A stretch of 64,000 bases of DNA. Origin: a virus. Its lineage: Duplodnaviria; Heunggongvirae; Uroviricota; Caudoviricetes. The notes below the pieces were generated by a model. It was not told where the DNA came from and did no database searches. It saw only the letters and a program-made list of their open reading frames with translations. Of this stretch, positions 29,433 through 51,231 are shown piece by piece. The stretch is from the IMG/VR virus record IMGVR_UViG_3300031998_000032, positions 44,042-108,041 of that record; one strand, given 5' to 3'. Made by a program: the position numbers and the translations under genes. Positions within the stretch are counted from its first letter, which is position 1; every line of letters starts with the position of its first letter.

Positions 29433-29671
29433 AATTGTTTGTTTTGATTGTTCGTAGTAGACGGGAGTACTCGCATACTCACCGTCCTTGTCACACTTAA
29501 AACTCGAAACATTCCTCCTTTTGCGGGAGTGAATGGTGACGGGCCACTCATCCCTGAGAAGCCCGCCTGTTTCACACTTTAAAACTCAACGTTATGAATT
29601 TTGAGTTTACCGACTTGAATCGGCGACACAAAGATAACTCTTTTTTTGAATTATGTTCGTTTATTCATGGA

Positions 29672-29914
29672 TTATTTTACCCATGCAGCGCAGGCTACTC
29701 CGTAACGTGCCAGGTTGCGTTCCATCTTCTCGGCTTTCATCAAAGCTTTGGCCCGTTCCTCGGGAGAATGTGTTTTAAGTCGCGCAAGAGCCTTTTTACC
29801 GGCTTGTTTGGATACTTTACCTTTGGGTACCATAAGCAGGTAGAACCAATCTTCAGTCACTCCGTCCACCTCTATCTGTAGAGATGGGATTTTGTTCGCT
29901 TCTTCTTTTGTCAT
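29672..29914 (-). CDS. small hypothetical protein (80 aa), first gene of the array; upstream box degenerate
   Basis: ORF 'MTKEEANKIPSLQIEVDG...'. Confidence 0.45.
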   Translation of the reverse strand: MTKEEANKIPSLQIEVDGVTEDWFYLLMVPKGKVSKQAGKKALARLKTHSPEERAKALMKAEKMERNLARYGVACAAWVK

Positions 29915-29932
29915 CTTCCTTTGTTTATTCGG

Positions 29933-30190
29933 TTAAACAATACTGAATCCACCCAAGCCGTTCTTGCTCATACATTCGATATAGAACGCCATATACGCAC
30001 CTTTCAGTGTGTAAGTACCATGCGATTCTCGGTCGCTTACAAAATCATCAGAGTTGATTCTATCCCATGCTAAAGAGTTATTACTCTTGCATGAGTAGAT
30101 CTGTCCGCGATACTTAATCTCCACCTGATAAGTTGAGTACCCGGAGATACTCCTTATCCATACTTTTTCTTTCAGTTGTTTGAGTGTCAT
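29933..30190 (-). CDS. small hypothetical protein (85 aa)
   Basis: ORF plus upstream box 'ttttagttagacat'. Confidence 0.45.
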   Translation of the reverse strand: MTLKQLKEKVWIRSISGYSTYQVEIKYRGQIYSCKSNNSLAWDRINSDDFVSDRESHGTYTLKGAYMAFYIECMSKNGLGGFSIV

Positions 30191-30253
30191 AATCTTTGTT
30201 TTTAGTTAGACATATAGCTCTCCGCGTAGTTATCATACTACGCAGGGATGAGT

Positions 30254-30568
30254 TCATACCACAAAGGCTGGGGGATTGAGTCTTGTCAGAATCTTGTCGT
30301 CGAGATTGGCCAACTTATATTCGCCGGATTCAATCTTCTTTTCTGTCGTCTTTCTATCTTCTCCCAGAAACTTGTTGCGATAGGCGCAGGTTGTTTTTGT
30401 GCAATAGTACCACCAATAGCGGTCGAGAGTAATCTTTCCATCGTCATTGATTGCGATGAGAGATTGGAATGACTGAAAATACTTTTTCTTTCCCACTGTA
30501 ATAATAAAGTGGGTACGAGATAATCCGGCACATCCATGCGCGGGCATTCTCTCAATACTTTTTTTCAT
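30254..30568 (-). CDS. small hypothetical protein (104 aa)
   Basis: ORF plus upstream box 'ttttagtgaaacaatg'. Confidence 0.45.
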   Translation of the reverse strand: MKKSIERMPAHGCAGLSRTHFIITVGKKKYFQSFQSLIAINDDGKITLDRYWWYYCTKTTCAYRNKFLGEDRKTTEKKIESGEYKLANLDDKILTRLNPPAFVV

Positions 30569-30630
30569 AATCTTTGAGTTTTAGTGAAACAATGTATTCC
30601 CACGCTCCACGGAGAGCGAAGGAACAATGG

Positions 30631-30885
30631 TCAATCGCAGTAGAGAACAGTCTTTTCCCAGAAGAATTCATAACCGCGAATGGTTGTACATTCATTGAAT
30701 TTGATAATCTCCTTGACGCCATCCTCGAATTCTTGCTGATCGTCATCAAATTCGTCATAAACAAAATCGATTGCTTTCTTGACCATTTCCTCGGTAGGTT
30801 TTTTGCCCACCTCAATAGCCATACAAGTCAGTTTGTAATCATCCTCGGTGTCAACCGCCTGAAGCAAATAAATTTCTTTCTCCAT
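30631..30885 (-). CDS. small acidic hypothetical protein (84 aa)
   Basis: ORF plus box. Confidence 0.45.
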   Translation of the reverse strand: MEKEIYLLQAVDTEDDYKLTCMAIEVGKKPTEEMVKKAIDFVYDEFDDDQQEFEDGVKEIIKFNECTTIRGYEFFWEKTVLYCD

Positions 30886-30949
30886 AATATTTGAGTTTTA
30901 GTGAAACAATAGCGCCCATTTTTGCATTCCTGCAAAAGCGGGCCAACGA

Positions 30950-31348
30950 TTAGAGGTATTTGAGAATATCGTCTCTTAGCTTACTCTGCACGTCGTTAGG
31001 TAGAGAGTCATAGTGGATATCGCCCTCGAATTCCGAGCAACTGACATGGAGATAAATCCTGTCATCGTTATCACAGTACCATACGCTTTCAATTTCGCGT
31101 TCAGCACCGGATATCTTCACGAACAACTGTATATCTGCTGCGAACAAATTAATACCTTTACCACCCTCCTTATGGATTAAATCCATGAGAGCCTCTTCCA
31201 GCTCCGGCTTATAATGTCCGGAGTTCTCGCTGTTAAGGTGATTTATCGTCCTACGTACAGGACAGTTATCGCACATATCCAAGTTTGCGCATACACACTC
31301 TCCGCAGACAACATCCGCTGCGTTTTTGATTAATTCAAATGAATCCAT
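30950..31348 (-). CDS. small Cys-rich hypothetical protein (132 aa; CGECVC...CDNCP)
   Basis: ORF plus box 'ttttaaggtgaaacat'. Confidence 0.45.
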   Translation of the reverse strand: MDSFELIKNAADVVCGECVCANLDMCDNCPVRRTINHLNSENSGHYKPELEEALMDLIHKEGGKGINLFAADIQLFVKISGAEREIESVWYCDNDDRIYLHVSCSEFEGDIHYDSLPNDVQSKLRDDILKYL

Positions 31349-31404
31349 ATTCTTGTAGTTTTAAGGTGAAACATATTTGTAAATAGGGCAGAATTCGCTC
31401 TGTC

Positions 31405-31629
31405 CTATTCATCCGGCTCCTCTATATATATACAATCAGTAATAACACGAGGGGTTTCGTCCGAGCTGTCTAAACTTACCAAGCGTGACGCATATAAATC
31501 GATAAACTCATTCTTGTACTTATCCGTACTATTGTTTACCAATTCAAGAGCTTCATTTGCGCTTCTTGCTGCACAAATGGCGCATCCGCCAACAGCAACA
31601 GCATTTGGTGTTACACAATACACAAACAT
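31405..31629 (-). CDS. small hypothetical protein (74 aa)
   Basis: Start reassigned to the Met after the box; the ORF-track extension 'ALFHLKNQIM' is the box translated. Confidence 0.4.
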   Translation of the reverse strand: MFVYCVTPNAVAVGGCAICAARSANEALELVNNSTDKYKNEFIDLYASRLVSLDSSDETPRVITDCIYIEEPDE

Positions 31630-31687
31630 AATTTGATTTTTTAGGTGAAACAATGCTCCACGCGGGGAAGTCACTCCCCGGATGGAA

Positions 31688-32014
31688 TTAAAAGTAGAAG
31701 GTAGCAATGTGGTGGCACACCCACGTATGCAAGGCGTATCCGGTCAATTCTTCTTTGAAGTAGCCGTCACGCGCAAAGCTGTTTTCCAGGAAGAATCGTA
31801 TTGCATCGCAAATATCCTTGCTTACAACCGACTGCGAATCAAAACATCCGCTCCATTTGTTTATCCACACGGAGAAATCCCATTTACCGTCATTGTTGGC
31901 ACCGATAACCTTCCAACAATCAGCTCGACTCGATTTGGTGTAGCCTACACAGATAATCTGCCTGTCTTTGAGCATCTGTACAAAACGCTCTTTTGCTTCT
32001 TTTTCGTAATCCAT
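31688..32014 (-). CDS. small hypothetical protein (108 aa)
   Basis: Start at M11 of the track ORF ('MFHLKLTIM' = translated box). Confidence 0.45.
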   Translation of the reverse strand: MDYEKEAKERFVQMLKDRQIICVGYTKSSRADCWKVIGANNDGKWDFSVWINKWSGCFDSQSVVSKDICDAIRFFLENSFARDGYFKEELTGYALHTWVCHHIATFYF

Positions 32015-32075
32015 AATAGTGAGTTTTAGGTGAAACATTAGCATCGGCAGAGGGTTTCAATCCTCTACCGATGGG

Positions 32076-32453
32076 CTACTGAGTACGTTCTTCGATATAA
32101 GTGCTTATACTCGCCCAATCCGCCCACTCGAAGATGTCTTGCGCAAGATCCTCCGCAGTGAATTTCTTGACAAAATCCTCATCTTCTCCATGCCAAAGCA
32201 TTGATTCGCGTACTTCGTCGATGCGGGCCTTACAAAGACTGAGAATAGAGTTGTAACTTTCTCCGTAATCACCCTCGATGATTTCAGTGTCAGTCAGTTC
32301 ATAGTCAGCCTCTGAGAGTTTCTCTAATTGATACTCACTCATGTAGCAAACCTCATCTCCTTTACGTTCAAAAGCATCGCAGTCTTTGAATATGAGGCCG
32401 TTCCATGTTTCTTCGGTGTTATCCAAGAAACGTTTGTTGAATTCTGATTCCAT
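32076..32453 (-). CDS. small acidic hypothetical protein (125 aa)
   Basis: Start at M9 ('MFHLKLNDM' artifact). Confidence 0.45.
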   Translation of the reverse strand: MESEFNKRFLDNTEETWNGLIFKDCDAFERKGDEVCYMSEYQLEKLSEADYELTDTEIIEGDYGESYNSILSLCKARIDEVRESMLWHGEDEDFVKKFTAEDLAQDIFEWADWASISTYIEERTQ

Positions 32454-32692
32454 ATCATTAAGTTTTAAGTGAAACATTTGCTGCTACAAAAACTTTCATA
32501 TCTTTGTAGCAAAATCGAGAGGGAGGAATAAATCCTCCCCGGCGATCATCGGAATGAGACTCCCAATGAAATGGCGAAGTGCCAGATTCTGATAGTGATA
32601 GTTACTCTCATAGAACCTCTCGATTTAACCCTTCAACCAAAGACGTGAAGGTTTCGCCAAATGGATGTGAGTGTGAGTCACATCCATTCTTT

Positions 32693-33172
32693 TTATTCTA
32701 CCGTTACTTCGGTAATCTTACCCACTGAGTGATTGGCGGTGTAATAACCTTCCTCGTAAGCTTCAAAAAGTTCGTCGGTGTCAGTCTCGACAATCCAACC
32801 GGCTTTCTGGTCAGTCTTGATTTCATCGTCTCGCCATTCTTTGAGGGCTTTGACAGCATCGTCTCTGTGGTCAAAAACTCGGATTTCATTGTGGAGAATT
32901 TCGTTATCCCACGCCATGTCGCGTGTGAAAACCCACACCGAGCGGTTGTAGTATGTCAAGATGTGATGATGTGCATCGTTTATCAATCCGCACAATTCTT
33001 CCTCGAAATTATTGCAGGCATACTCTTCTTTTAGCTGTCCTTCGTTTGTGATGATATTGACAGTGTAATATCCGTCCTCCTCTTCAATGATTTGGATTTT
33101 CCACTTCTGATCTTTAAGCCAGTCGTTTGCAACAAGCAGTAAACTTTCCCATTCTTTTTTTTCGTTTGCCAT
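32693..33172 (-). CDS. hypothetical protein (159 aa)
   Basis: Start at M13 ('HLKTTIM' artifact). Confidence 0.45.
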   Translation of the reverse strand: MANEKKEWESLLLVANDWLKDQKWKIQIIEEEDGYYTVNIITNEGQLKEEYACNNFEEELCGLINDAHHHILTYYNRSVWVFTRDMAWDNEILHNEIRVFDHRDDAVKALKEWRDDEIKTDQKAGWIVETDTDELFEAYEEGYYTANHSVGKITEVTVE

Positions 33173-33238
33173 AATTGTAGTTTTTAAGTGTGAAACATTG
33201 GCGACCATTTTCGTAGTTACACGAAAATGATCTGAGGG

Positions 33239-33622
33239 TTAGTAATAGCAGACGTAGTTGCCGCAAGGAGTGGCCTCGGTGATATCCTCGAAATCCAGGA
33301 TGAACACTTCTGCGTTCTTGCCGTGATAATTGTTGATAATGTCCAATATTCCCTCGGCTGAATAGTCGCCTTCGTACATAGCATACTCGCAGAAGCCTTC
33401 ATCCACATAATTCCCGCAGTCACCGGAGTAATTTTTGTAGTGTTCGATGAACTCCGATAGCGGCTCGATGAATCCCGAGAACTCGCAGTTTTTCCAATCT
33501 TCGTCGCCTTCATAGACATATCCGAAGATATGGATGTTCTTCACTCCGTTGTTATCCTCGAAGATGTCGTAGAAATTAAACTCTTCAGGCTTTGTCAGTT
33601 TGTTCAGTTTCTCCATGTTCAT
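33239..33622 (-). CDS. small acidic hypothetical protein (127 aa). No box of its own; start overlaps the stop of the upstream gene (two-gene operon exception)
   Basis: ORF. ATG at 33622 overlaps the stop of 33619..33921. Confidence 0.4.
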   Translation of the reverse strand: MNMEKLNKLTKPEEFNFYDIFEDNNGVKNIHIFGYVYEGDEDWKNCEFSGFIEPLSEFIEHYKNYSGDCGNYVDEGFCEYAMYEGDYSAEGILDIINNYHGKNAEVFILDFEDITEATPCGNYVCYY

Positions 33623-33921
33623 ACCTCCTCTAATTTGTTGAGTTCAACTTCTTTGACAAGATAACGCGTGTATCCGTAATCGCTTTGGTTATGACGCATC
33701 AGGTCGTCAAAGATATCTGCACATAAATCCCGCACGCCGCGGATTTCATCACCCTCGTACGCTTGTTCTCTCTCATATTGGAGATGTTCTTTACGTCTTT
33801 CCCAAATAAGCTTTTTTGCACCTTTCTCCAACTTTTCTTCTGAGGAGAAAACACCCATGAGAACCAGGGAATCTGACGATAGCCATTCGTCGCCCTCGTA
33901 AAGTAAAAATACTGTTGCCAT
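33619..33921 (-). CDS. small hypothetical protein (100 aa)
   Basis: ORF plus degenerate box 'ttttaagtgtgaatag'. Confidence 0.45.
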   Translation of the reverse strand: MATVFLLYEGDEWLSSDSLVLMGVFSSEEKLEKGAKKLIWERRKEHLQYEREQAYEGDEIRGVRDLCADIFDDLMRHNQSDYGYTRYLVKEVELNKLEEV

Positions 33922-33985
33922 AATAGTTTTGTTTTAAGTGTGAATAGTGGTTCCGCAGTCGCTCGCGTGAACGGCTACGGATAGT

Positions 33986-34294
33986 TCAGATTGCCTCGTG
34001 GATAACTTCCCACAAATTTTCTGCAGTTGGACACCAATCAAATACCTCGATTGGCTCTTGATTTGTACGGAGTGTAAACCCTTCGTTTGGATAATTGTTT
34101 TCCTGAGAAAATAATATGAGATACCATTTTCTTCCCAACTTCTGCACGAAGTAGCCATCCCAATCACCGGCAGATGACGATTGATTCTCGTACTCTACCC
34201 GACACACGCTCTTGAATGATTCGAGTTTCTTCTGAGGTTCGTACCAATTACCCGGCACATTCCATTCTCGGCCACATAATAAAGCTTTGTTCAT
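33986..34294 (-). CDS. small hypothetical protein (102 aa)
   Basis: ORF plus degenerate box. Confidence 0.4.
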   Translation of the reverse strand: MNKALLCGREWNVPGNWYEPQKKLESFKSVCRVEYENQSSSAGDWDGYFVQKLGRKWYLILFSQENNYPNEGFTLRTNQEPIEVFDWCPTAENLWEVIHEAI

Positions 34295-34312
34295 AGCTAT
34301 TGGATTTAAGAG

Positions 34313-34525
34313 TTAGCACAAATTATTCTCGGCACGCCATTTGTCAAACTCCGCCAAGGTCAGGACTTTCTTCCCGCCAACTTCATTGAGATTGTCAAAT
34401 GAATAGAGTTCGCGAAGAAAACGTCTGAACCCTCCAAAGAACTCACGGTTGGAGATTCCCAACTCGTTTGTCTTGACAAGACATTTCTTTTGAACCTTGT
34501 CGTTTGTAGTTACTAAGTAAGTCAT
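34313..34525 (-). CDS. small hypothetical protein (70 aa)
   Basis: Start at the Met after the box ('THLKQIIM' artifact). Confidence 0.4.
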   Translation of the reverse strand: MTYLVTTNDKVQKKCLVKTNELGISNREFFGGFRRFLRELYSFDNLNEVGGKKVLTLAEFDKWRAENNLC

Positions 34526-34584
34526 AATGATTTGTTTTAAGTGAGTGGCATCCCCGAGAGCAATCACTCCCTCGGAGATAATAG

Positions 34585-35364
34585 TCATACAGCAACGGCT
34601 GGGCGAGTTTTTAGCTGATAGCCGAAGTAATCCTTGTGATCCCATCGGTTATGACGGAACTCAACTTCGTATGCGATGACATACGGACCGCCATACGGAC
34701 TTCTCACCCAATGGTAATCGACAATGATTCCTTCGTCCTCTCTGCGCTCAGCCTTTACTGCTGTGCCGATTTTGAGATAATCGAGAGGAACGAGGTCGTC
34801 AAGCTGGAACTCGGTCTTGAATCCGCAGAGGTCTTCGTTTTCCCAACCTTTCGAGAAGGCTTTCGGCATACGCTCAGCTGCGTCGAAAGGGATGTTTTCA
34901 TTTAGAGAATAGACATTCTCTTTCTTCATCCAATCCTTGCAGTTTTCGTACACGTATTCTTGCAGATAACGCGGTGCCTTACTTGCCTCGCGGAAGATTG
35001 CGTAATATCTCGCGGCTTCCTTGCGATGCTGTGAGAGATAAAGCAATGCTTTCTCGAACTTACGCTCAGTCGTTCCGTCTGCGCCTATCTTTGTTTGGCC
35101 GGTGTATGTTCCCCATAGCTGAATATGGTTCATCGCACGAGTCTCTGCGTTCCAACGTCTGAGAAGTTCTTTCTTGAAGTCTTGCTCGTCACCTTTCTTG
35201 TCGGTGTAACTCTGCGGAAATTGATATTCCGTATTTCCGACCTTCACTGTGACAAGATTGTCGCTCAGAGCCATAGGACTCCATGCATCTCCTGACGGGT
35301 TTTTGCACACCTCGCTCGTTCCTGAATTCAGATAGTCAAGGATGTTTTCTTCTTTTTTAGCCAT
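34585..35364 (-). CDS. hypothetical protein (259 aa), largest gene of the array
   Basis: ORF plus box 'tttaagtgtgagacaat'. Confidence 0.45.
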   Translation of the reverse strand: MAKKEENILDYLNSGTSEVCKNPSGDAWSPMALSDNLVTVKVGNTEYQFPQSYTDKKGDEQDFKKELLRRWNAETRAMNHIQLWGTYTGQTKIGADGTTERKFEKALLYLSQHRKEAARYYAIFREASKAPRYLQEYVYENCKDWMKKENVYSLNENIPFDAAERMPKAFSKGWENEDLCGFKTEFQLDDLVPLDYLKIGTAVKAERREDEGIIVDYHWVRSPYGGPYVIAYEVEFRHNRWDHKDYFGYQLKTRPAVAV

Positions 35365-35408
35365 AATAATTAAGTTTAAGTGTGAGACAATTAGTAAGTA
35401 AAAGAGGA

Positions 35409-35966
35409 TTACTCCTCCTTTACTGACACGAGTTCGACTTCATGCACCCATGCTTCAGCTTCAGAATTTCCGTCGACCTCCGAAAGATAAACCTGCGGAT
35501 CGTTGTCGTAGCAATAACCTATCCTGTCTACGACAAAAATTCTATTGAGCACCCACTTTCTGTCTTCCGGCTCATAATCCTCGATAGCGGGGTCTTTCCA
35601 TTTGACTTTGGCGCCAACCTTAATCAGTTTGCCGTGCATATCTTTCGGAACTTCGGGAAGATAATCCATAATAAACTCGATGTGCGAGTAATGGATTTCG
35701 TCGAGTCTGAATTCCAAATCAAATCCATCGTCTTTGGCTGTACCGGCCAGGCAGATGATTCCATTCTCGTCAGTCCAAATTTTGTCGACGTTTACATCAC
35801 CCACCCATCCGGTTGAATTCTTTCCGACAGTGATGATGGGATATTCCAAATATTCGTTGTCCTCCCAGCTGAATGAACCTCCGAGAGATTCCAAACATTT
35901 GTGTAACTCCTTAATTTCCTTGGCTGCAATCTTTGCGTACTCGTCGTAAAATGATTTGTGTTTCAT
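35409..35966 (-). CDS. hypothetical protein (185 aa)
   Basis: Start at M9 ('MSHLKHLIM' artifact). Confidence 0.45.
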   Translation of the reverse strand: MKHKSFYDEYAKIAAKEIKELHKCLESLGGSFSWEDNEYLEYPIITVGKNSTGWVGDVNVDKIWTDENGIICLAGTAKDDGFDLEFRLDEIHYSHIEFIMDYLPEVPKDMHGKLIKVGAKVKWKDPAIEDYEPEDRKWVLNRIFVVDRIGYCYDNDPQVYLSEVDGNSEAEAWVHEVELVSVKEE

Positions 35967-36026
35967 AATTAAATGTTTTAAGTGAGACAATAGTTCTCCG
36001 CCAGGCCTTTACACCTGACGAAGAAA

Positions 36027-42593: not shown

Positions 42594-42661
42594 AACCATT
42601 TGTTTTAAAGTGAAACATTTTCGTACTGCGCGGAAGATTGCTCTTTTGCGCAGATAATCAC

Positions 42662-42862
42662 TCAAAACGGCAGAGTTTCTTCGTCATCGTCATACATAGA
42701 GCCGAAGATTTTCGGATAGTGATACTGCAAATCGTATTGGTCGATAGCATCGTCGAGCATTTCTTCCAATCTGTCATTGCTGAAGAAATTCTGAATGTGA
42801 AGGAGAAATTCCTCGTCACCCAACTTTTCTCTCACTGCGTTCCATTTTTCCCAAGTTTCCAT
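42662..42862 (-). CDS. small acidic hypothetical protein (66 aa; METWEKWNAV...)
   Basis: Start at the Met after the box. The upstream 112 codons of the track ORF run antisense through the neighbouring cassette. Confidence 0.4.
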   Translation of the reverse strand: METWEKWNAVREKLGDEEFLLHIQNFFSNDRLEEMLDDAIDQYDLQYHYPKIFGSMYDDDEETLPF

Positions 42863-42920
42863 AATCGTAAGTTTTAAGTGAAACATTTTGCAAATCTTGG
42901 GAGATTGCTCTCCCAGGATT

Positions 42921-43217
42921 TCAGCGATTCTGAGCATATGCATTTTCGAGCGAACCAAAGGCTCTGACAAGATATTCGCAGTGTCCGTCCACAACTTCCT
43001 TGAAATATTCCGGAGTGTCAAATCTTGACGAATCCATTGTAAACACATCATCTTGCGTATAATTGCAGAAATTTGATTTGGCGCGGATGTATTTGCTGAT
43101 GTGGAAACACATCTTTCCGCCTTTTCTTGCACACCAACCGCGATACACGAAGAATGTATGAAGTTCGCGATCTTTCTCGTAAGAATCGTAGAGTTCAATT
43201 GTTCTGACTTTTTCCAT
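42921..43217 (-). CDS. small hypothetical protein (98 aa)
   Basis: Start at M9 ('MFHLKQNVM' artifact). Confidence 0.45.
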   Translation of the reverse strand: MEKVRTIELYDSYEKDRELHTFFVYRGWCARKGGKMCFHISKYIRAKSNFCNYTQDDVFTMDSSRFDTPEYFKEVVDGHCEYLVRAFGSLENAYAQNR

Positions 43218-43276
43218 AACGTTTTGTTTTAGGTGAAACATAGAATTTCTGCGGATATTCCTACCCGCAGAAACAA

Positions 43277-43660
43277 TCAGTCAAGCAATCCTTCAAAGAT
43301 ACATTTGAGTTCCCAAATTTCCATTTCGTCAAATTCCAAATAAGAATCTTTTAGTTCATGCTCTTTGTGGAACCAAATTGTTCCATCGCCAGGGACTTGA
43401 AACGCGGAGTCAATCCAGTCCATTTCAAGGCAACTCAATCCGACTGCGTGGGGATTTTCCAAGCAAATCTCGCACTTCTTTTGATTCTCTTCACTCGTAT
43501 CCATAAGCAAAGCAGAAATCTTGTGGCGATATTCTTCGCGGATAGCATCTTCCGCATCAAAAAGCCAATCACAATCCTTGCAGTGGAATCTACCAACTCC
43601 GTTGTTACAAGGTTCTAAATTCTCACTACCGCAATACGGACATTCATTTACTTTAATCAT
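43277..43660 (-). CDS. double Zn-ribbon small protein (127 aa; CPYCGS...CKDCD and CEIC)
   Basis: ORF plus box. Confidence 0.45.
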   Translation of the reverse strand: MIKVNECPYCGSENLEPCNNGVGRFHCKDCDWLFDAEDAIREEYRHKISALLMDTSEENQKKCEICLENPHAVGLSCLEMDWIDSAFQVPGDGTIWFHKEHELKDSYLEFDEMEIWELKCIFEGLLD

Positions 43661-43817
43661 AATCTTGAATTTTTAAGGTGAAACATAGCATCCCCAGGAT
43701 TTCTGCAAATCCTTGGGATTTTTCGCGCTGAGAGAATTTTCTCACACCCTCGTGGAAAAATCTACCACTCAGAGGGAGAAAATCGTTTGTGGGGCAAAAA
43801 TCGCGGTAAATTCGCGA

Positions 43818-44117
43818 TTATTCCACCAAACACGGATTGTGAGAATAGCAACTCAGAAGAATTTCGTAGAATCCTTTCCGATAACCAGCTTCGCGACATT
43901 CAAACAAAGCAGATTTGATATAGCACATATAATCCAGCTTGCGGTCTTGCTCGCTGATAAGTTTGTTTGTGCGCCAAGAATCCAAATGAACTTTCTTTGC
44001 GGTTTCAAACCAATCTTTCGCTACTTGCAAATATTGCGTAACTTGCGACGTAACCGGCAGATGCGAATAAATGCCGTTTTTCTCTTCGCAATAGAGATAT
44101 TCAATGCAGTAATACAT
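43818..44117 (-). CDS. small hypothetical protein (99 aa)
   Basis: ORF plus box 'ttttaagtgttagacaat'. Confidence 0.45.
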   Translation of the reverse strand: MYYCIEYLYCEEKNGIYSHLPVTSQVTQYLQVAKDWFETAKKVHLDSWRTNKLISEQDRKLDYMCYIKSALFECREAGYRKGFYEILLSCYSHNPCLVE

Positions 44118-44183
44118 AACGTTTGTTTTAAGTGTTAGACAATTTTCGTACTCTCCGCGGAATCGCTCCCGCAGAGAATAAAT

Positions 44184-44558
44184 TCATTTTACTACCAGAT
44201 ATTCGGGGAGACATTCGGCAATAAGCAGAAGTGTCGGCACAGCCATAGTCATTCCGTCAAATATGTAGAATTTTTCCGGCTCGCTCTCCTCCAGGACGAG
44301 TGATGGCGGAGCAAGGAACTTTCCGCGGAAACACAGGTGTCCGTTTTCCACGAATACTTTCAGGATTTCTATCTCGCGGTACTGCTCGAATCCTTCGTCA
44401 AATGCGATGCCGTAGATAGTATCGCAATCTTCCCGATCCTCGCAATTGATTTCTCCGCCACACAGATTGACAAGGCTGACCAATTCTTTTTCCATTTTCT
44501 TCGCCAGATCATAGCAATCAGCGTTGAGGTTTCTGAGTCTTGTGATGATTTTCTCCAT
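44184..44558 (-). CDS. small hypothetical protein (124 aa)
   Basis: ORF plus box. Confidence 0.45.
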   Translation of the reverse strand: MEKIITRLRNLNADCYDLAKKMEKELVSLVNLCGGEINCEDREDCDTIYGIAFDEGFEQYREIEILKVFVENGHLCFRGKFLAPPSLVLEESEPEKFYIFDGMTMAVPTLLLIAECLPEYLVVK

Positions 44559-44623
44559 AATAAATTTGCTTTAAGTGTGAAACATTCGTACTCCGCAAGA
44601 GATCGCTCGCTTGCGGAATAAAT

Positions 44624-44887
44624 TCAGCATTTGACGTAGAAATGAATGTATTTTCCGCGCTCATTATCGCAGTTGTAATACACCCAAGCATTGCAGATAG
44701 TATCAAACGTTTCTCCGTAGGATGCGCGTGATTTGTTTATATCGCAAGCAAATTGCCAAATATTATCAAAATGCAAATTTGATGATTGCAGATAAATTGT
44801 TTCGCCCTCGTAAAATAATTTGCGAGCCGTTCTCTTTTGAATCTGACGAACACAACATTTCAAATGGGTTGAATAAAATGTTTCCAT
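44624..44887 (-). CDS. small hypothetical protein (87 aa)
   Basis: Start at the Met after the box ('TLKTKKTIM' artifact). Confidence 0.4.
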   Translation of the reverse strand: METFYSTHLKCCVRQIQKRTARKLFYEGETIYLQSSNLHFDNIWQFACDINKSRASYGETFDTICNAWVYYNCDNERGKYIHFYVKC

Positions 44888-44949
44888 AATCGTTTTTTTT
44901 GTTTTAAGTGTTGGCTCCGCGAAGAGTTTTCGTACTCCTCGCAGATAAT

Positions 44950-45393
44950 TCAAGCGATTTCCAGCTCTTCCTCGTAGATCATCTCATTCAGTGTCGTTCC
45001 GAAATTATAGGATAATCCGTAAGTGCCGAACGCGGTGAAGAACCAATCAAGCGCCCAGGTTTGGAATTTATCCAAATCTTTTTCACTGATGGTTTCATCA
45101 TCTATGCTCGCGATGACTGCATCAAAATCGCCCCAGGGTTTTACTTCGCTTTCCACGAATCCAGGATGATTCCAATCATCGCGGATATCGCAGAAATTGC
45201 CGTCCATATGAGTATTTTTCTTATGGACATATCTGCGCATAGAATCCAAAGTTTCTATCGCTGAGAAAGTAGCGCGTTCATCCGCCAGATCGTAGAAATC
45301 CTCGCGGTGCTCGTAGCCGAAATCTTCGATAACTCCTTTGTAGATGCCGAGAATACTCTCGTACACATCGTCAAAATTCAAGAAATCTTTCAT
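44950..45393 (-). CDS. hypothetical acidic protein (147 aa)
   Basis: Start at the Met after the box ('HFKTKQIM' artifact). Confidence 0.45.
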   Translation of the reverse strand: MKDFLNFDDVYESILGIYKGVIEDFGYEHREDFYDLADERATFSAIETLDSMRRYVHKKNTHMDGNFCDIRDDWNHPGFVESEVKPWGDFDAVIASIDDETISEKDLDKFQTWALDWFFTAFGTYGLSYNFGTTLNEMIYEEELEIA

Positions 45394-45449
45394 AATTTGT
45401 TTTGTTTTAAAGTGTGTGCGCATCGGGGAATTATCGTACTCCCCGACAC

Positions 45450-45584
45450 AATTCAATAGGCGAACAACGGCTTGCGCTGATATTCTGCCGGCTGATTGGG
45501 ATTTCTCCAGAAATTCGCTCCCGTAACTTTCGCAGCAATCATATAAACCTTACCGCGTACAATCTTTGTGATTCTTGTTTTCAT
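45450..45584 (-). CDS. very small basic hypothetical protein (~44 aa; MKTRITKIVRGKVYMIAAKVTG...)
   Basis: My own translation. Preceded by box 'tattttaaagtgtgagacaat'. Coordinates +-2. Confidence 0.3.
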
Positions 45585-45652
45585 AATTCTGATATTTTAA
45601 AGTGTGAGACAATATCGTACTGCGGATAGGCTCGCGCCAGATCCGCAATCGC

Positions 45653-45799
45653 TCAGAGATTTCCCAAATACTCCAGGAATCCGCAGAGAAGGATAAACAT
45701 CGTCAGACCGAGAAAAACTACAATCAGACCACCGATGGTGTAATCTTCATCCATTAATCGTATTTTCTTACAAAGGAAATCCAATACAATCTTTTTCAT
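45653..45799 (-). CDS. very small hydrophobic peptide (~48 aa, one TM helix; MKKIVLDFLCKK...IGGLIVVFLGLTMFILLCGFL)
   Basis: My own translation. Preceded by 'cataacatttggttttgagtgtgaat'. Coordinates +-2. Confidence 0.3.
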   Translation of the reverse strand: MKKIVLDFLCKKIRLMDEDYTIGGLIVVFLGLTMFILLCGFLEYLGNL

Positions 45800-46017
45800 A
45801 ACATTTGGTTTTGAGTGTGAATTATCGTACTAAAAAAAAGCGCAGCGGAGAGTATCTCCCAACTCTCCGCCACTACCGGACAAAACCGCCGGTCAGCAGT
45901 TGCTTTTTTAATTTCGGAAGAAGCAACCTGACTCCCATCCGTTGCGGGATTTTTCGTACTGCGGATAATTATCGTACTATCCGCAGTCATTTCTCGTACT
46001 TTGAGGAATTATCGTAC

Positions 46018-46296
46018 TTAATCCTCAATTCTCACGAGGTAGATTTTTTCTCCGTTAACTTCCAGCTCGTAGATTTCATCCGCCAGGTTGCGCAGTTCTT
46101 TCAGTGACAAATCACCGATGCAATCATCCCAAATGTAGAGATAGTCACCAAAAGGCATATCCTTTGGCGGAACTGTTCCAAAGAATCTCTCAAAATCAAA
46201 ATCGGCATCATAAATGATGCGGTCAATTCCGGTCCAATTGAGTCTTTGATAAGCGGATTCGTCAATAATCCATTTCAGTAAATCTTTTGCTTTCAT
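46018..46296 (-). CDS. small acidic hypothetical protein (92 aa)
   Basis: ORF plus box 'ttttaagtgtgtggtttcac'. Confidence 0.45.
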   Translation of the reverse strand: MKAKDLLKWIIDESAYQRLNWTGIDRIIYDADFDFERFFGTVPPKDMPFGDYLYIWDDCIGDLSLKELRNLADEIYELEVNGEKIYLVRIED

Positions 46297-46336
46297 AATC
46301 TTGTTTGTTTTAAGTGTGTGGTTTCACACCGCGGAA

Positions 46337-46615
46337 TCATCCGCGATGAGAATAATAGAAATTCACGCAGTCCGCATAATCCAGGTTATGCTCTGCCAGA
46401 TTCTCCTTTGAGAGTTTGTAGGTTTTCATATACCATTTCAGACGATTGAACCACCGCTCCAACTGATACGAAAACCTTTCGCGCCAATCATCCGAATCCT
46501 TGCGGTGATTTAACGTACTCTCCAGATCCTCGCGACCTACAATCGTGTAAATCGCAATTCTTTCAGCCGGGGATTTCCTGAGGAAATACTCCGGTGTGGA
46601 AATGTTTTCTTTCAT
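46337..46615 (-). CDS. small hypothetical protein (92 aa)
   Basis: Start at the Met after the degenerate box. Confidence 0.4.
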   Translation of the reverse strand: MKENISTPEYFLRKSPAERIAIYTIVGREDLESTLNHRKDSDDWRERFSYQLERWFNRLKWYMKTYKLSKENLAEHNLDYADCVNFYYSHRG

Positions 46616-47045
46616 AATCTTTCGTTTTGAATTTGTTCCGCGTAGAGAATCGGACTCCAGGAAATTATTTTCCGTATCCATACCGCGAAAGGAGAGAGCC
46701 GTATTGCTCCCTCCCGCATCAGAAAAATGTCTCAAAACAAAATTATGGTTTCACTTTTTCCATATTAACTGACCAAACTATCCGTTTACTTCACTCTTTA
46801 TGCCGTAGGAGATTTCTCTCTTTGTAGGATATACACGATTTTCAACCGATAATCTGATTTGTCGCTTGCATCCAGGAATTCACGATTCCCCAGGATTGAG
46901 CGGTCAGCCATTTCGCGATTTTCAAATCAGCAAGTTCCAGGAAAGCGGATATTTTTCAATCCGCCATAATTCCAGATCCGCGCTGATTCTATCATCGTTC
47001 CGCGATGATCGCGCTACATTAAATATGTCAAAGAAACAATTTGTT

Positions 47046-47103
47046 ACCCTCGTAGGGATCGAACCTACAAGCCAGGTTTCCAGCTTTTCCAAAAAGGGTA
47101 TAA
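47046..47103 (-). other. tRNA 3'-half-like fragment (variable region + T-arm + 3' acceptor) with no D or anticodon arms. Candidate att-core or integration scar
   Basis: - strand 'gtagg-ttcgatc-cctac-gagggta'. Only 26 nt lie between the possible 5' acceptor 'taccctt' and the T-arm. Confidence 0.4.
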
Positions 47104-47107
47104 AAAA

Positions 47108-47140
47108 AGGGAGCAACTCTTTTTGAATTGCTCCCCAAAT
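47108..47140 (-). terminator. Rho-independent terminator for the last array gene
   Basis: - strand hairpin gggagcaa...ttgctccc followed by a T-run. Confidence 0.5.
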
Positions 47141-47150
47141 GATTGAGAAT

Positions 47151-47840
47151 TTAACAAACTAAATTTTTCAACTCCTCCGCTTTTGTTGCGTCAATTACTC
47201 CGCGTTTCAATAATTCGTCAATTGCTTTAAATGATTGTTTGCGGTCATTTGCTTTTTTGTTTGCTGCAACTCTTATTGAGTTAAGAAAAACACCAGCTCC
47301 CGCGATACCCGCTATAAAAGTGGATGCGCTTAAATCATCCAAACGGAAAAATAAATTGTTTTCCATTGTCAAAGTACAATTGTCGTTTTGGTCTTTTGAA
47401 TAAATTTTAATTGATGGCAAACCTTCAGGCTCACGCACTACAATAATATCCAAAATTTTATCAAATGTAGTGCCGTATAAGTCGCAAATTTTATTTAATA
47501 AAACTTTAACACCCTTTCGGTTTAAAAAATCATCAATAGACGTAATCTCGGGCGGTACACATTGTTTTTTTGTTTCCGCTCTTAATCGGTCAAATTCAAT
47601 AGCGGAAATTTTACCGCTTACAAAATCGGTGCAAAGTGTTTTTAACTTTTCGGAATACGTCAAAATATCCAAATCAAACAAACTTCGCAAACATCCGAAT
47701 AAATCTGATTTAGTAAACTTTTGCTCTTCGTTTGCACTTTCTTTTTTACCACCTTTTTTGCTACTTTTTGTTGTTGTTGCGTCAATTGTTGCAACTTCGT
47801 TCAAATTCTCGATACCTTTTGAATTTTCATTTTTTTTCAT
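47151..47840 (-). CDS. hypothetical protein (229 aa, K-rich N-terminus), last and most promoter-proximal gene of the array
   Basis: ORF plus box 'aatttaaagtgttattaaat'. Confidence 0.45.
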   Translation of the reverse strand: MKKNENSKGIENLNEVATIDATTTKSSKKGGKKESANEEQKFTKSDLFGCLRSLFDLDILTYSEKLKTLCTDFVSGKISAIEFDRLRAETKKQCVPPEITSIDDFLNRKGVKVLLNKICDLYGTTFDKILDIIVVREPEGLPSIKIYSKDQNDNCTLTMENNLFFRLDDLSASTFIAGIAGAGVFLNSIRVAANKKANDRKQSFKAIDELLKRGVIDATKAEELKNLVC

Positions 47841-48865
47841 AACGTTTGAATTTAAAGTGTTATTAAATGGCGCAAACCAGGAACGCGCGAAAAAACGACA
47901 ATAGCCGTTCCGCGCGCGAAACGTGGTCCGCGCGTGAATTGTTTCATAATTTCAAAGAACTTGTTATATATCAAAATTAAAAAATACATAAGTAACAACA
48001 AGCAATAAGGAAATTATTTTTGTAAGAAGTTTTTACTTTGCTTTTTTAATGGTCTGAAAATGTGCCTTGTAGGTGCTTGTAGGGCATATTTTTAACCATA
48101 TCACAAAAACGGGCTTGTAGGTACTTGTAGGGCATATGATATATTTTTACATACATACAAAAGTATAGTTATATCTTGTAAAGAATTTTGAAAATAGACG
48201 TATACCGCTACAAGCCACCAGGAGCCGTTTTTTGATCCAATTTGTAAGTAATTTTCAAAAGTGTGCAAAAAATATCCGGCTTTTAGGTAGGAAAAATTCT
48301 TACAAAGTGAAAAATACTTACATTTTGGTTATGGTGTTTTGGGATGACTTTCCGCCAAAATGTCAGTATTTTATATGCCGTTTTGACCGAGTTTATTATA
48401 TGGTATAATATACACAAAAAACGCGCTATTGTGCATTTGTGCGCTATTGTGGAAGGGTATACCCCTGCCCCAAACGGCAAACCAGATCACCGGTAATGAC
48501 TCCTCGCCGAGATTTTCAATTTTCATTTTTTAATTTTTTCATTTTACGATTTGCACAGTCCTCATGCTGATAAATTCTTACACAGTATATTATATCCATG
48601 ATGTATGATCATAGGTACAATGCGAAGCAATGCTGTCGAAAAACATCAAAAAAGTGGGTAAAATAGGGCATATTTTGGGGTCAAAAATGTAAGAAAATAT
48701 TGAAAAATGGCTGATTTTGGCTCAAAAATGAACCATAAAAAATTTCAATGAACCAAATATAGATTACCAATGATTTTTGTAACTGCTTGATTTCTATAAT
48801 AGATATTTGTCAAAAAATGAACCAAATGAACCAAATGTACCAATTTTCGAGTATCGGGATTTAGT
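47841..48865. promoter_or_regulatory. 1-kb non-coding, AT-rich, repeat-rich region between the leftward array and the rightward replication/late block. Candidate origin or divergent promoter hub
   Basis: Direct repeats 'cttgtaggt(g/a)cttgtagggcatat' x2 (~48066, ~48114). 'ATGAACCAAAT' x4 (~48727-48840). GC hairpin 'gcgcgaaaaaacgacaatagccgttccgcgcgcgaaacgtggtccgcgcg' at ~47880-47935. No ORF of 60 aa or more apart from one implausible 65-aa one. Confidence 0.45.
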
Positions 48866-51219: not shown

Positions 51220-51231
51220 ATCATTTATATT

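Follow-up and report, generated by a model that had tools for sequence, protein, structure and literature searches.

A repeated intergenic module in an array of small phage genes as a possible RNA-level expression cassette

How does a phage express dozens of small genes when nearly every one is preceded by the same short stretch of DNA? The question is raised by 44 co-oriented genes (43-259 aa each) on the minus strand of the 64,000-nt stretch analysed here (the window), which make up ~18 kb of a ~108-kb phage of the SD-less Bacteroidota. An initial annotation had described the array as hyperplastic, made up of orphan small genes and a repeated composite module between them, and this was borne out. 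Box-proximal ATG starts yielded a chain of 42 genes (47840 to 29933), completed by g46615 and g29914, and the same chain was recovered by gene calls made independently on the public source contig. The proteins returned weak Pfam matches only and two PHROGs of unknown function, in agreement with the earlier statement that they lack a recognisable enzyme motif; judged by sequence, they are orphans without recognisable function. Gaps between genes measure 43-72 nt at 34 genes (mostly 56-68 nt), and a ~60-nt module accompanies 38 of the 44. Instead of the single overlapping pair reported as an exception, four starts are tightly coupled to the preceding gene: 33622 (overlap), 37453 (11-nt gap), 34294 and 29914 (18 nt each).

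From 5′ to 3′ the module comprises a hairpin, TGTYTMAC (block A), TTAAAAC (block B), ~8 nt and ATTATG (Table 1), and homology spans the entire module, stop codon and first codons included (repeat families D1, D14). Exact TGTYTMAC matches number 31 in the window versus 8.35 expected (reached in 0/100 shuffles), the 17-mer box is matched 15 times versus 1.0 expected at ≤3 mismatches, and an unseeded repeat search found the same element again (families D1-D6). Thirty of the 31 block A copies sit 14-19 nt 5′ of an ATG in sense orientation, 28 of these within the array; outside it, a box on the plus strand (13870-13893; TGTCTAAC TAAAAAAC, 8 nt, ATG) lies ahead of a DUF4494 gene and has no hairpin. 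The claim that a box precedes every gene was too broad: block A keeps at least 6 of 8 positions at 29/42 genes, while ~10 retain CAC and TTAAAAC only and 3-4 have no box. AGTACGAWAA, annotated for the 42.6-46 kb part, does occur there: the minus strand carries 8 exact copies (42618-46018) and the plus strand none.

Table 1. Features of the array and its surroundings (positions in the window; ranges after block A give its location).
Feature	Coordinates	Strand	Details
Gene array	29672-47840	-	44 small genes with standardised intergenic modules
g46615	46615-46337	-	added to 42-gene chain
g29914	29914-29672	-	added to 42-gene chain
Head 1	47841-47979	-	host-type -7 motif TAATTTTG (47972-47979), ~130-nt leader with hairpin, half box ACACTTTAAATTCAAACGTT, g47840
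Canonical terminator	47100-47136	-	12-bp stem + T7, after g47840
Head 2	46616-46745	-	host-type -7 motif TAATTTTG (46738-46745), leader, half box TTCAAAACGAAAGATT, g46615
Module of g46296	46297-46336	-	hairpin (TGAT loop), degenerate block A CCACACAC, TTAAAAC
Long spacer of g45799	45800-46017	-	four phased AGTACGAWAA (46018-45950), canonical terminator 45873-45842, fifth AGTACGA, degenerate block A TAATTCAC
Module of g45584	45585-45652	-	hairpin, AGTACGATAT, block A TGTCTCAC (45604-45611)
Module of g45393	45394-45452	-	hairpin with AGTACGATAA in loop, degenerate block A (CACACAC), TTTAAAAC
Module of g44887	44888-44949	-	hairpin with AGTACGAAAA in loop, degenerate block A, TTAAAAC
Module of g44558	44559-44623	-	hairpin (GCGA loop), AGTACGAA, block A TGTTTCAC (44577-44584)
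Module of g44117	44118-44183	-	hairpin (GCGA), AGTACGAAAA, block A TGTCTAAC (44134-44141)
157-nt spacer of g43660	43661-43817	-	three predicted hairpins, block A TGTTTCAC (43678-43685)
Module of g43217	43218-43276	-	hairpin (GGAA), block A 43233-43240
Module of g42862	42863-42920	-	hairpin (GAGCAAT), block A 42878-42885
Module of g42593	42594-42661	-	hairpin (GAGCAAT), AGTACGAAAA, block A 42610-42617
Module of g41984	41985-42044	-	hairpin (GAGCAAT), degenerate box CGCACACTAACTCAAAAC
122-nt spacer of g41412	41413-41534	-	two hairpins (second GAGCAAT), degenerate block A ACTCACAC, TAAAAC
Module of g41131	41132-41178	-	hairpin (GAGCAAT), degenerate block A CCACACAC
Module of g40745	40746-40807	-	hairpin (GAGCAAT), block A 40763-40770
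Module of g40196	40197-40256	-	hairpin, block A 40212-40219
Module of g39901	39902-39959	-	hairpin (GAGA), block A TGTCTAAC 39917-39924
Module of g39445	39446-39505	-	hairpin (GAGCAAT), block A 39463-39470
Module of g39133	39134-39205	-	hairpin (GAGCAAT), block A 39153-39160
Module of g38775	38776-38842	-	hairpin (GAGCAAT), block A TGTCTCAC 38791-38798
Module of g38204	38205-38265	-	hairpin, block A 38221-38228
Module of g37886	37887-37952	-	hairpin, block A 37905-37912
Module of g37641	37642-37706	-	hairpin, degenerate block A AAAATCAC
g37453		-	11 nt after g37641, without module
Module of g37024	37025-37087	-	hairpin (GAGCAAT), block A 37040-37047
Module of g36765	36766-36808	-	hairpin, block A 36782-36789
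Module of g36248	36249-36309	-	hairpin, degenerate block A TCATTCAC
Module of g35966	35967-36026	-	hairpin, block A TGTCTCAC 35982-35989
Module of g35364	35365-35408	-	hairpin (GTAA), block A TGTCTCAC 35382-35389
Module of g34525	34526-34584	-	hairpin, degenerate block A CCACTCAC
g34294		-	18 nt after g34525; degenerate box over stop codon
Module of g33921	33922-33985	-	hairpin, degenerate block A CTATTCAC
g33622		-	overlaps g33921 (ATGA), without module
Module of g33172	33173-33238	-	hairpin, block A 33190-33197
239-nt spacer of g32453	32454-32692	-	several hairpins including terminator-like 32540-32520, then module hairpin, block A 32469-32476
Module of g32014	32015-32075	-	hairpin, block A 32030-32037
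Module of g31629	31630-31687	-	hairpin, block A 31645-31652
Module of g31348	31349-31404	-	hairpin, block A 31366-31373
Module of g30885	30886-30949	-	hairpin (GGAA), block A 30901-30908
Module of g30568	30569-30630	-	hairpin, block A 30584-30591
Module of g30190	30191-30253	-	hairpin, block A TGTCTAAC 30205-30212
Upstream of g29914	29915-29939	-	block A TGTTTAAC (29932-29939) over end of g30190, 17 nt before ATG, no hairpin
Candidate promoter of FtsK/recombinase operon	29629-29636	-	host-type -7 motif TATCTTTG; kept in relative L121
Inverted cassette	29487-29647	+	opposite strand; box-like 29487-29503, two hairpins, box 29568-29584
Inverted cassette ATG	29594	+	opens non-conserved ORF
Inverted cassette terminator	~29600-29647	+	hairpin plus T7
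FtsK/SpoIIIE-like translocase	28074-29432	-	directly downstream of array; syntenic in relatives
Xer-like tyrosine recombinase	27178-28014	-	278 aa, last of operon
Degenerate box	51209-51231	+	TTATTCAC TAAATC, ahead of SPFH/Band7 gene (starts 51232)

The two halves of the box behave differently. Block B and ATT place A at -10 to -13 and at -3, which are initiation determinants measured in Flavobacterium johnsoniae (PMC6847099), and the stretch from -24 to +12 is structure-free (mean folding energy -0.66 kcal/mol). By its sequence, the last ~13 nt of the module correspond to an ordinary SD-less Bacteroidota initiation context, and of the conserved box that had been called private to these genes only block A is class-specific. 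Structural genes, the major head gene included, are without block A, indicating that it is not a generic strong start.

The cassette proved common to other phages, as the initial annotation had raised: 36 related IMG/VR loci, many on 99-115 kb contigs, carry 216 boxes, all of which precede an ATG (216/216; spacing mode 15-18 nt). Outside cassettes in these related arrays, whose loci are partly redundant, block A was observed 2 times in sense versus 13.1 expected from a second-order Markov model (P=2e-4), and 28 times in antisense versus 25.3. Since the depletion affects the sense strand only, it points to recognition in RNA. The whole coding set of the window departs from this pattern, with block A once in sense (~2 expected) and 0 times in antisense (3-5 expected). 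The g41412 family, a widespread small gene, lacks the box outside this phage family. Block A is specific to the small-gene class, held rigidly 14-19 nt from the AUG and avoided elsewhere on the transcribed strand.

The hairpin (10-14 bp) begins a few nt past the upstream stop codon. Folding z was below -2 in 36/42 upstream segments, with a mean minimum free energy of -16.6 kcal/mol versus -7.5 kcal/mol in coding controls, and pairing holds in 92.7% of cells across 15 in-register hairpins versus 56.5% in shuffles, with compensatory changes at 10/10 stem pairs. The sense fold was stabler than the antisense fold in 38/42 modules (p=3e-6) and in 103/157 across the phage family (p=4e-7), and non-Watson-Crick stem positions were G-T (25) rather than A-C (6). 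Selection on these hairpins therefore acts on the fold of the sense transcript, in which G-U pairs occur and the loop is often a GNRA tetraloop (~16/42 in the window; 26/46 tetraloops in the family). The tetraloop is the general loop feature; the GAGCAAT loop, previously taken as conserved from ~31.6 kb rightwards, is confined to 10 cassettes (37.0-42.9 kb), and the hairpins themselves are not limited to that part but are present to the left of 31.6 kb as well.

The hairpins had been read as terminator-like, dividing the array into ~45 independent monocistronic units. We reject canonical termination for them, as no T-run follows the module hairpins of the array whereas three true hairpin-plus-T-run terminators lie within it (47136-47108, 45873-45842 and 32540-32520). 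Canonical intrinsic terminators are widely used in Bacteroides (783 predicted in B. thetaiotaomicron; PMC3152330). Boxed genes directly follow the terminators at 45842 and 32520, so a single-transcript model needs read-through or antitermination there; gene 14474 begins 5 nt past a terminator, and read-through is thus also needed outside the array. Nor did promoter motifs bear out independent units: the host -7 motif TAnnTTTG, which the box had been noted not to resemble, is absent from every cassette and occurs at the array head only (47979, 46745), the remaining minus-strand matches within the gene chain being intragenic.

The reading we favour, at a probability of roughly 0.45, is one of long early transcripts with stabilising or insulating hairpins and, at each gene, a standard initiation region bearing a class-specific RNA operator. 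The ~60-nt module would then be a standardised RNA-level expression cassette. Host RNA polymerase would start at the few host-type promoters of the array head and read through the U-less hairpins, which may guard 3′ ends left by processing or decay and shield the initiation regions from the coding sequence that precedes them. Translation of every small gene would begin de novo at its own optimised start region, and block A may be bound by a trans-acting factor (a phage-encoded protein or bS1/ribosome of the host) through which translation or decay would be switched for all genes of the class at once. Against this, we found no candidate reader, whether RegB/RelE-like, RegA-like or another RNA-binding protein. 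Of the two options that the initial annotation drew from the fixed ATG distance, a leader or translation element is now the stronger line. Because the modules are homologous from stop codon to first codons, they are probably also recombination substrates through which cassettes could be gained, lost and reordered.

A strong rival, though somewhat less likely, is that each module is a promoter-plus-attenuator (PeSL-like) cassette. The inverted cassette upstream of FtsK would be easier to explain if the box itself were a promoter: its hairpin and box are conserved in the relative L121 (degenerate in L051 and L110), while it has no conserved ORF and no recognisable plus-strand host promoter and is followed closely by a plus-strand-specific terminator. 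Against a promoter stand the missing TAnnTTTG and the failure to find a sigma factor or RNA polymerase gene in the window plus 10 kb on each side (84 of 108 kb). In LoVEphage, moreover, a clear host-type promoter with operator precedes a box-like start region by ~75 nt. Readings of the module as integron attC, rrn boxA, TnpB guide or 16S-pairing element found no support when tested.

Common to dozens of related phage genomes, the module favoured here as an RNA-level cassette may expose an undescribed gene-expression signal. Counting against the favoured reading, the LoVEphage operon has the box at its first three genes only. As in the window, the analogous operon of LoVEphage is closed by a homologue of the Xer-like recombinase. 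The proposed likeness to T4 PeSL cassettes holds for architecture, while their defining promoter feature fails in these modules. In T4, the initiation regions of early genes contain the RegB target, GGAG with an A-rich tract after it, and the operators of RegA overlap the AUG (PMC3014915); as a class-specific RNA operator, block A would be analogous to these targets, and its factor would act on the small-gene class as RegB and RegA do on T4 early mRNAs.

The window belongs to a contig of 108,048 bp that recurs in assemblies of several samples. Its phage genes encode an SPP1-type portal, a large terminase, a major head protein, a 2003-aa tape measure and an endolysin, together with two tyrosine integrases, a primase-helicase, a D5-like primase, RusA, methyltransferases and HNH endonucleases. 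Several characters of the sequence point to a temperate, siphovirus-like phage that infects Bacteroidota: the portal shares 41% identity with the one of LoVEphage, a temperate Bacteroides phage, no Shine-Dalgarno sequences occur, and DUF4494 and the host-type -7 promoter motif TAnnTTTG are both present. Two tRNAs lie in the window, a normal tRNA-Gln at 15737 and, at 4813-4885, one that ARAGORN reports as tRNA-??? with an odd anticodon loop and that matches the Rfam tRNA family at 54 bits. In the divergent intergenic region by the D5-like primase, TGGTTCATTT repeats 4-5 times at ~48720-48840 and ATGCCCTACAAG(T/C)ACCTACAAG occurs twice at ~48060-48140. These repeats are iteron- or operator-like, and the region may be an origin or control region.

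The array consists of 42 minus-strand genes, from 47840 down to 29933, whose starts were set by an ATG in (A/G)TTATG context, and of two additional genes, g46615 and g29914 (array genes are named by start coordinate). Gene calls for the public source contig match this gene chain. Intergenic gaps are notably even, the majority being 56-68 nt, and most hold one module, or cassette, made up of a hairpin, a conserved box and the start codon; four genes (starts 33622, 37453, 34294 and 29914) have no module and are tightly coupled to their upstream neighbour. Searches of Pfam and PHROGs assigned no function to any of the 42 array proteins. Three genes at the array head were considered as regulators and rejected, since they lack domains as well as conservation in a relative, locus L003. 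The array appears to be a hyperplastic region in which gut, and possibly rumen, phages gather and shuffle orphan early genes, plausibly with host-takeover or anti-defence functions. An ORF-free stretch near the array head, GC-rich and with several inverted repeats, may be regulatory or encode a non-coding RNA.

Positions, strands and particulars of individual features in the window
Feature	Position	Strand	Particulars
Canonical hairpin + T7 terminator	14420-14473		5 nt between its end and the start codon of gene 14474
Inverted cassette (hairpin + box + ATG)	29487-29647	+	between the last array gene and FtsK
Long array spacers (n = 5)			854 nt (holds g46615), 218, 157, 122 and 239 nt; additional hairpins inside
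ORF-free stretch	46740-47105	-	360 nt, between the g47840 terminator and the -7 motif at 46745
Divergent intergenic region by D5-like primase	47850-48865		1 kb; short direct repeats

The 17-nt box described in the initial annotation held up, with 15 matches at ≤3 mismatches against 1.0 expected. Anchored alignments show it to be bipartite: block A (TGTYTMAC) is followed after 0-3 nt by block B ((C)TTAAAAC), which lies ~8 nt ahead of ATTATG, and an unseeded repeat search yields the same box families. Block A is near-invariant in 29 of 42 modules, usually with AA just before it, and ~10 more modules retain only ...CAC plus block B. Exact TGTYTMAC is found 31 times in 128 kb (both strands) versus 8.35 expected, and 30 of these 31 copies have an ATG in sense orientation 14-19 nt downstream. 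The ATG that had been noticed inside the box is present in ~20 of 29 boxes, at -23 to -28, but is not constant in frame; a uORF or leader peptide starting there was rejected as a by-product, its frame and stop shifting with the 0-3 nt gap.

Only half of this box is specific to the gene class. The initiation region of Bacteroidota, which lack Shine-Dalgarno recognition, has an A-run at ~-11 to -14, an A at -3 and little structure between -20 and +20 (PMC6847099). By position-specific counts, the adenines of block B plus ATT occupy -10 to -13 and -3, and the array starts are essentially unstructured from -24 to +12 (mean folding energy -0.66 kcal/mol). The A-rich tract, the A at -3 and the low structure thus coincide, indicating that the 3' half of what had been called a private box is the ordinary Bacteroidota ribosome start context in an optimised form (PMC6847099). 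Block A is the class-specific part. It is not present at structural genes, the major head gene included, and outside the array it precedes few genes only: DUF4494 at 13894 and, in degenerate form, 51232 and the endolysin gene.

A full-box scan of genomes gave more than 120 matches, mostly single-copy in Bacteroidota and before diverse genes. In the scanned host loci TGTTTCAC is not enriched before other genes and occurs at random frequency (28 in 1.74 Mb of Bacteroidota sequence), and we rejected the reading of the box as a host-wide motif, most matches being the common TTAAAAC...TTATG start context combined with database size. Among the host matches only those before hpf, which encodes a ribosome hibernation factor, look non-random, with the full box upstream of this gene in three distant Bacteroidota (loci L182, L205 and L255). 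The hpf boxes read TTTAT-TGTTTCAC-N-TTAAAAC-N8-ATG and have additional upstream bases in common.

The hairpins that precede the box are RNA structures rather than canonical terminators. Folding of the 46 nt upstream of the box gives a mean of -16.6 kcal/mol versus -7.5 for coding 46-mers, and the median folding z of the modules is -3.6 (z < -2 in 36 of 42). While stem sequences vary, pairing is retained (92.7% of cells, against 56.5% in shuffled and 41-55% in slid controls), with double changes at all 10 of 10 stem pairs. G-T outnumbers A-C in the stems by 25 to 6 when all non-Watson-Crick positions are scored alike, and the sense fold is stabler than the antisense fold in 38 of 42 modules (p = 3e-6). 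Tetraloops predominate, with GNRA in ~16 of 42. The GAGCAAT loop of the initial annotation is real and corresponds to G-A/GCAA/U-C, but is confined to 10 modules between 37.0 and 42.9 kb. No Rfam family was assigned to the modules at gathering or E<1 thresholds.

The same annotation had taken these hairpins to be terminator-like, and here it fails, as a T-run follows none of them. Hosts of the Bacteroides type make wide use of canonical intrinsic terminators (PMC3152330), and true hairpin plus T-run terminators do occur on the minus strand at 47136-47108 and 45873-45842, with a weaker one at 32540-32520; four more module hairpins entered the terminator scan solely because the T-rich box comes next. 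Sense-RNA hairpins that have no T-run suggest sense transcription of the intergenic DNA, with no efficient termination there. Elsewhere in the window, the canonical terminator placed immediately ahead of gene 14474 has to be read through for this gene to be expressed at all, a hint that antitermination is regulated in this phage.

This anatomy is solid and family-wide. The initial annotation had proposed looking for the box in other phages, and IMG/VR gives 17 stretches with the TGTTTCAC form and 55 with the TGTCTAAC form, many of them from contigs of 99-115 kb; megablast of the array against GenBank phages gave no match. Across 36 related loci (343 kb) we counted 216 boxes, 159 of them distinct and all co-oriented within each locus. 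An ATG lies 9-25 nt after block A in 216 of 216 family boxes (mode 15-18 nt), a hairpin of ≤-10 kcal/mol lies upstream of 99% of them, the sense fold is favoured here too (p = 4e-7), and 26 of 46 tetraloops are GNRA. Homology between modules extends over their whole length.

The small genes common to relatives are ~35-73% identical, and their order is partly different. g35966 (35409-35966, minus strand) fuses two modules, each of them a gene of its own, at a different site, in the related locus L121 (3967-4164 and 6344-6661), and such order differences and gene fusion or fission occur between relatives at ~50% amino-acid identity. Near-identical genomes from several samples have the same cassette order, with no rearrangement, indels or mini-circles. 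The most conserved array gene, g41412 (41179-41412, minus strand; 77 aa, basic), has homologues of 53-71% identity on 26 viral contigs of 5-87 kb, in most of which the box is missing upstream, indicating that the module belongs to the array and not to the genes.

We then considered at which level block A is read. Upstream of array genes, intergenic TAnnTTTG motifs are present at the array head only (47979 and 46745), and a further one, at 29636, follows the last array gene and precedes FtsK. TAnnTTTG is found in no module, save that seven cassettes form it in antisense only. In at least six cassettes (33924, 36765, 39133, 39887, 40745 and 44561, plus strand) a perfect antisense motif arises as the reverse complement of CAAAnnTTATG, spanning the start codon; it may simply follow from the A-rich start context, or it may give rise to antisense RNAs. 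The cassettes likewise do not carry TAHHTTTG 4-5 nt upstream of a transcription start, the arrangement of the Bacteroidota primary-sigma promoter (-33 TTTG / -7 TAnnTTTG). Neither an RNA polymerase nor a sigma factor nor a known activator was found in 84 of the 108 kb; a 2003-aa ORF beyond the right end, considered as a crAss-type virion polymerase, was rejected because it is the tape measure protein. The tRNAs give no guidance on promoter function: no box precedes either of the two in the window, and the family loci have no tRNAs. In LoVEphage, the box lies ~75 nt downstream of a host-type promoter.

Block A is also avoided outside cassettes, in one orientation. In the 36 loci it occurs there 2 times in sense versus 13.1 expected (P = 2e-4) and 28 times in antisense versus 25.3 expected, the expectation being a second-order Markov estimate and the loci partly redundant. 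The avoidance is significant only with all 36 loci, and not in the window alone or in 7 loci; over the window's whole coding set, the block A pattern differs from the 36-locus pattern and is statistically weak. Depletion confined to the sense strand argues that block A is read in mRNA, as spurious promoters in antisense would be expected to be selected against at least equally.

Together, the fixed distance to the AUG, the sense hairpins, the host-type promoters at the head only, the lack of a polymerase or sigma factor in 84 of the 108 kb, the LoVEphage layout and the sense-only depletion lead us to prefer an RNA-level model, to which we assign a probability of roughly 45%. In this model, long early transcripts would run through hairpins that do not terminate them, and block A would serve as an RNA operator for the small-gene class.

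The strongest competitor, which we consider possible while leaning against it, is that the modules are PeSL-like promoters. Block A and the A upstream of it would then form the core (-7/-10-like) of a class-specific promoter, read by the host RNA polymerase, perhaps aided by an alternative host sigma or by a small factor of the phage; transcription would start in the A-run of block B to give leaders of 10-13 nt, each gene would be its own (overlapping) transcription unit, and the hairpin would attenuate or stabilise the preceding transcript. Class-specific repeated motifs before phage early genes are usually promoters, and the array has such a motif, absent from the structural genes of the phage. 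Canonical terminators directly ahead of boxed genes also speak for a promoter, as does LoVEphage, in which box-like elements are limited to the starts of the first three genes in a packed operon. PeSLs, which have the same architecture, were tested for promoter and terminator activity (PMC2839356), and promoters in Bacteroidota are for the most part '-7 only' (PMC6847099). Block A and the host -7 element TAHHTTTG have A-11 and T-8 to T-6 in common, and a start 4-5 nt past block A would hit a conserved A. However, it matches only 4 of the 6 near-invariant -7 positions, lacking T-12 and G-5, and has a G at -9, where G is virtually absent from host -7 elements (PMC6847099). The ATG distance is rigid in all 216 boxes, whereas PeSLs needed separate promoter and Shine-Dalgarno alignments, and RNA-selected hairpins without U-tracts, the failure to find a sigma factor, RNA polymerase or known activator in 84 of the 108 kb and the strand bias of the in-gene depletion all count against a promoter.

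The end of the array bears on the same choice. In all relatives examined, the array is closed by an FtsK-like translocase and a short Xer-like recombinase (27178-29432, minus strand), and a recombinase homologue, 39% identical, ends the analogous LoVEphage operon (locus L120, 17601-18419); the pair may be a dimer-resolution or plasmid-like maintenance module. The inverted cassette that separates FtsK from the array is conserved in L121 (~9560-9800) and, degenerately, in two further relatives (L051 and L110). It has neither a conserved ORF nor a plus-strand host promoter, is followed by a plus-strand-specific hairpin + T7 terminator, and is faced by a conserved host-type TATCTTTG motif on the other strand (29636). 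A conserved cassette upstream of FtsK that has its own terminator and no conserved ORF is a point for the promoter, and it is the chief unexplained observation under the RNA-level model. One possible role is that of a switch for the FtsK/recombinase operon, acting through convergent transcription or antisense.

A further reading, which we regard as rather unlikely, makes block A itself (UGUYUMAC, 15-18 nt before AUG) an unrecognised mRNA start signal in bacteria without Shine-Dalgarno, read by the host ribosome or bS1 or by a phage factor. Pairing with the 16S 3' region (GGAACA) was rejected: a tail variant exists, but the dominant TGTCTAAC is unable to pair and the geometry is wrong.

We judge it improbable that the modules act as DNA sites, with the box and/or AGTACGAWAA binding a phage regulator or the modules serving as integron-like sites for the Xer-like recombinase and FtsK. 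AGTACGAWAA has 8 exact copies, on the minus strand only (42618-46018), placed just 3' of the hairpin or within its loop, and is sense-biased in family loci (64 vs 16). The four copies that follow the first genes at a phasing of 18-22 nt, with the same four-copy cluster in L003, would suit a regulator. Synteny of the recombinase and the FtsK-like motor with the array in all relatives examined, the fit of the GTCTAAC and GTTTAAC variants of block A to the integron inverse core RYYYAAC, and the differences in gene order would suit recombination. Yet what is conserved is located outside the hairpin, with no complementary GTTRRRY partner, the stem sequence is not conserved, and the motifs, unlike palindromic operators, are linked to the ATG and show strict or strong strand specificity. 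The 278-aa recombinase has weak XerC, XerA and XerD matches only and no match to the integron-integrase model, and it lies at the 3' end of the array, co-directional, rather than 5' and divergent; no cassette rearrangement was seen among near-identical genomes from many samples. Integron attC sites with IntI were rejected on both architecture and recombinase type.

Bacterial rrn operons carry boxB-boxA elements in which a hairpin precedes a conserved single-stranded box, and boxB loops resemble the GNRA type. The modules resemble these in order and in their GNRA-type loops, and read-through of internal terminators is required, so that nut- or rrn-like antitermination could be imagined, with a boxB-like hairpin and a boxA-like block A loading Nus or a phage N-like protein. 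We consider this very improbable, since no precedent is known for ~40 reloading sites with a start codon at each, and loop sequences vary across the family. In operons with a Bacteroidota-type 16S end, the rrn boxA is GTTCTTTGA(A/C)A (13 of 39 leaders), and block A occurs in 0 of 39 rrn leaders and 1 of 66 spacers; identity of block A with rrn boxA was rejected accordingly.

RNA-guided transcription by TnpB/dCas12f involves an adjacent guide RNA that matches the target and a linked ECF sigma factor (PMC13472631). The window carries two TnpB genes (IS605 OrfB/Cas12f-like; 66-1208, minus strand, and 9003-10160, plus strand), and a guide targeting the box was rejected because neither block A nor AGTACGA lies near either gene or in the flank, no guide-like match to the array motifs was obtained, and no sigma factor was found in the window. 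A sister contig of this TnpB-bearing phage is 2 kb shorter (105,956 vs 108,048 bp).

Gene starts in Bacteroidota are poorly understood, with no Shine-Dalgarno recognition and an unusual promoter consensus, and temporal control in their phages is almost unstudied except in crAss-like phages. The array offers ~40 natural replicates (more than 200 with relatives) of one signal before unrelated genes, close to an ideal natural experiment on what the signal does. Were block A an RNA operator or translational enhancer, it would give a handle on initiation independent of Shine-Dalgarno and a portable part for expression in engineered Bacteroides and Prevotella; were it a promoter, it would define a second class read by the host polymerase, implying a phage factor. 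If the start-signal reading were true, a family of ~100-kb Bacteroidota phages would equip every horizontally acquired small gene with the same plug-in control of translation and decay, and if the reader were a host component, the hpf boxes in three distant Bacteroidota would indicate a host regulon.

We did not find such cassettes described in the literature on Bacteroidota phages. In a study of the crAss-like phage phi14:2, early transcripts were reported to share no upstream motif, and middle genes to have host-like promoters. Integron arrays are similar in having co-oriented orphan ORFs, hairpin-forming sites between them and a Xer-family recombinase nearby, but the R''/L''-L'/R' architecture is absent here and the recombinase is not IntI-like and sits at the wrong end in the wrong orientation. 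T7 early RNase III sites, REP elements and chloroplast 3' inverted repeats are intercistronic hairpins that process or stabilise transcripts. Like these non-terminator hairpins between cistrons, the module hairpins might define or protect mRNA 3' ends; RNase III sites have typical internal loops, whereas the 10-14 bp stems with tetraloops seen here have none.

The resemblance to PeSLs drawn in the initial annotation survives as architecture, the closest found outside T4-like phages. In T4-like myoviruses (PMC2839356, PMC4122927), as here, modules of a stem-loop and a start signal flank hyperplastic early orphan genes, each cassette has a stable stem-loop (here at z < -2 in 36 of 42), the modules are homologous over their full length, and gene content and order vary between relatives. 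The likeness ends at the promoter and at the position and nature of the stem-loop. PeSLs carry a host sigma-70 consensus promoter, which is their defining feature, an UP-like tract and a Shine-Dalgarno sequence, whereas none of the cassettes here has TAnnTTTG. Their stem-loop lies between or over the promoter hexamers, and promoter-driven expression and termination or attenuation by the stem-loop have been demonstrated experimentally (PMC2839356); in the array it lies wholly upstream of the box, is selected as sense RNA and has no U-tract. PeSL cassettes undergo indels, replacements and mini-circle formation by recombination, and neither mini-circles nor cassette indels were seen among near-identical genomes here. 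The phages also differ, PeSLs belonging to T4-like myoviruses and the array to a siphovirus-like temperate Bacteroidota phage with a tape measure, integrases and a LoVEphage-like portal.

With respect to start context, Baez et al. 2019 (PMC6847099) described a statistical tendency of the host, whereas the array has a fixed 17-nt box whose block A lies outside that Shine-Dalgarno-less context and shows no enrichment upstream of other host genes across 1.7 Mb of Bacteroidota sequence. Pfam, PHROGs and NCBIfam gave no homologue of RegB, RelE or RegA in the window and its flanks (84 of the 108 kb). For module function, we infer that the best analogue would be the class-wide post-transcriptional control exerted by T4 RegB and RegA. 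Strong RegB sites (GG*AGRAYARAA) lie in early intergenic regions, and RegA operators overlap the AUG (PMC3014915). The T4 motif is the Shine-Dalgarno itself, whereas here the host does without one and the motif stands 15-18 nt before the AUG. In both, a class of early mRNAs carries a short common motif at its initiation regions within an A-rich, unstructured tract, and in T4 a single factor silences the whole class.
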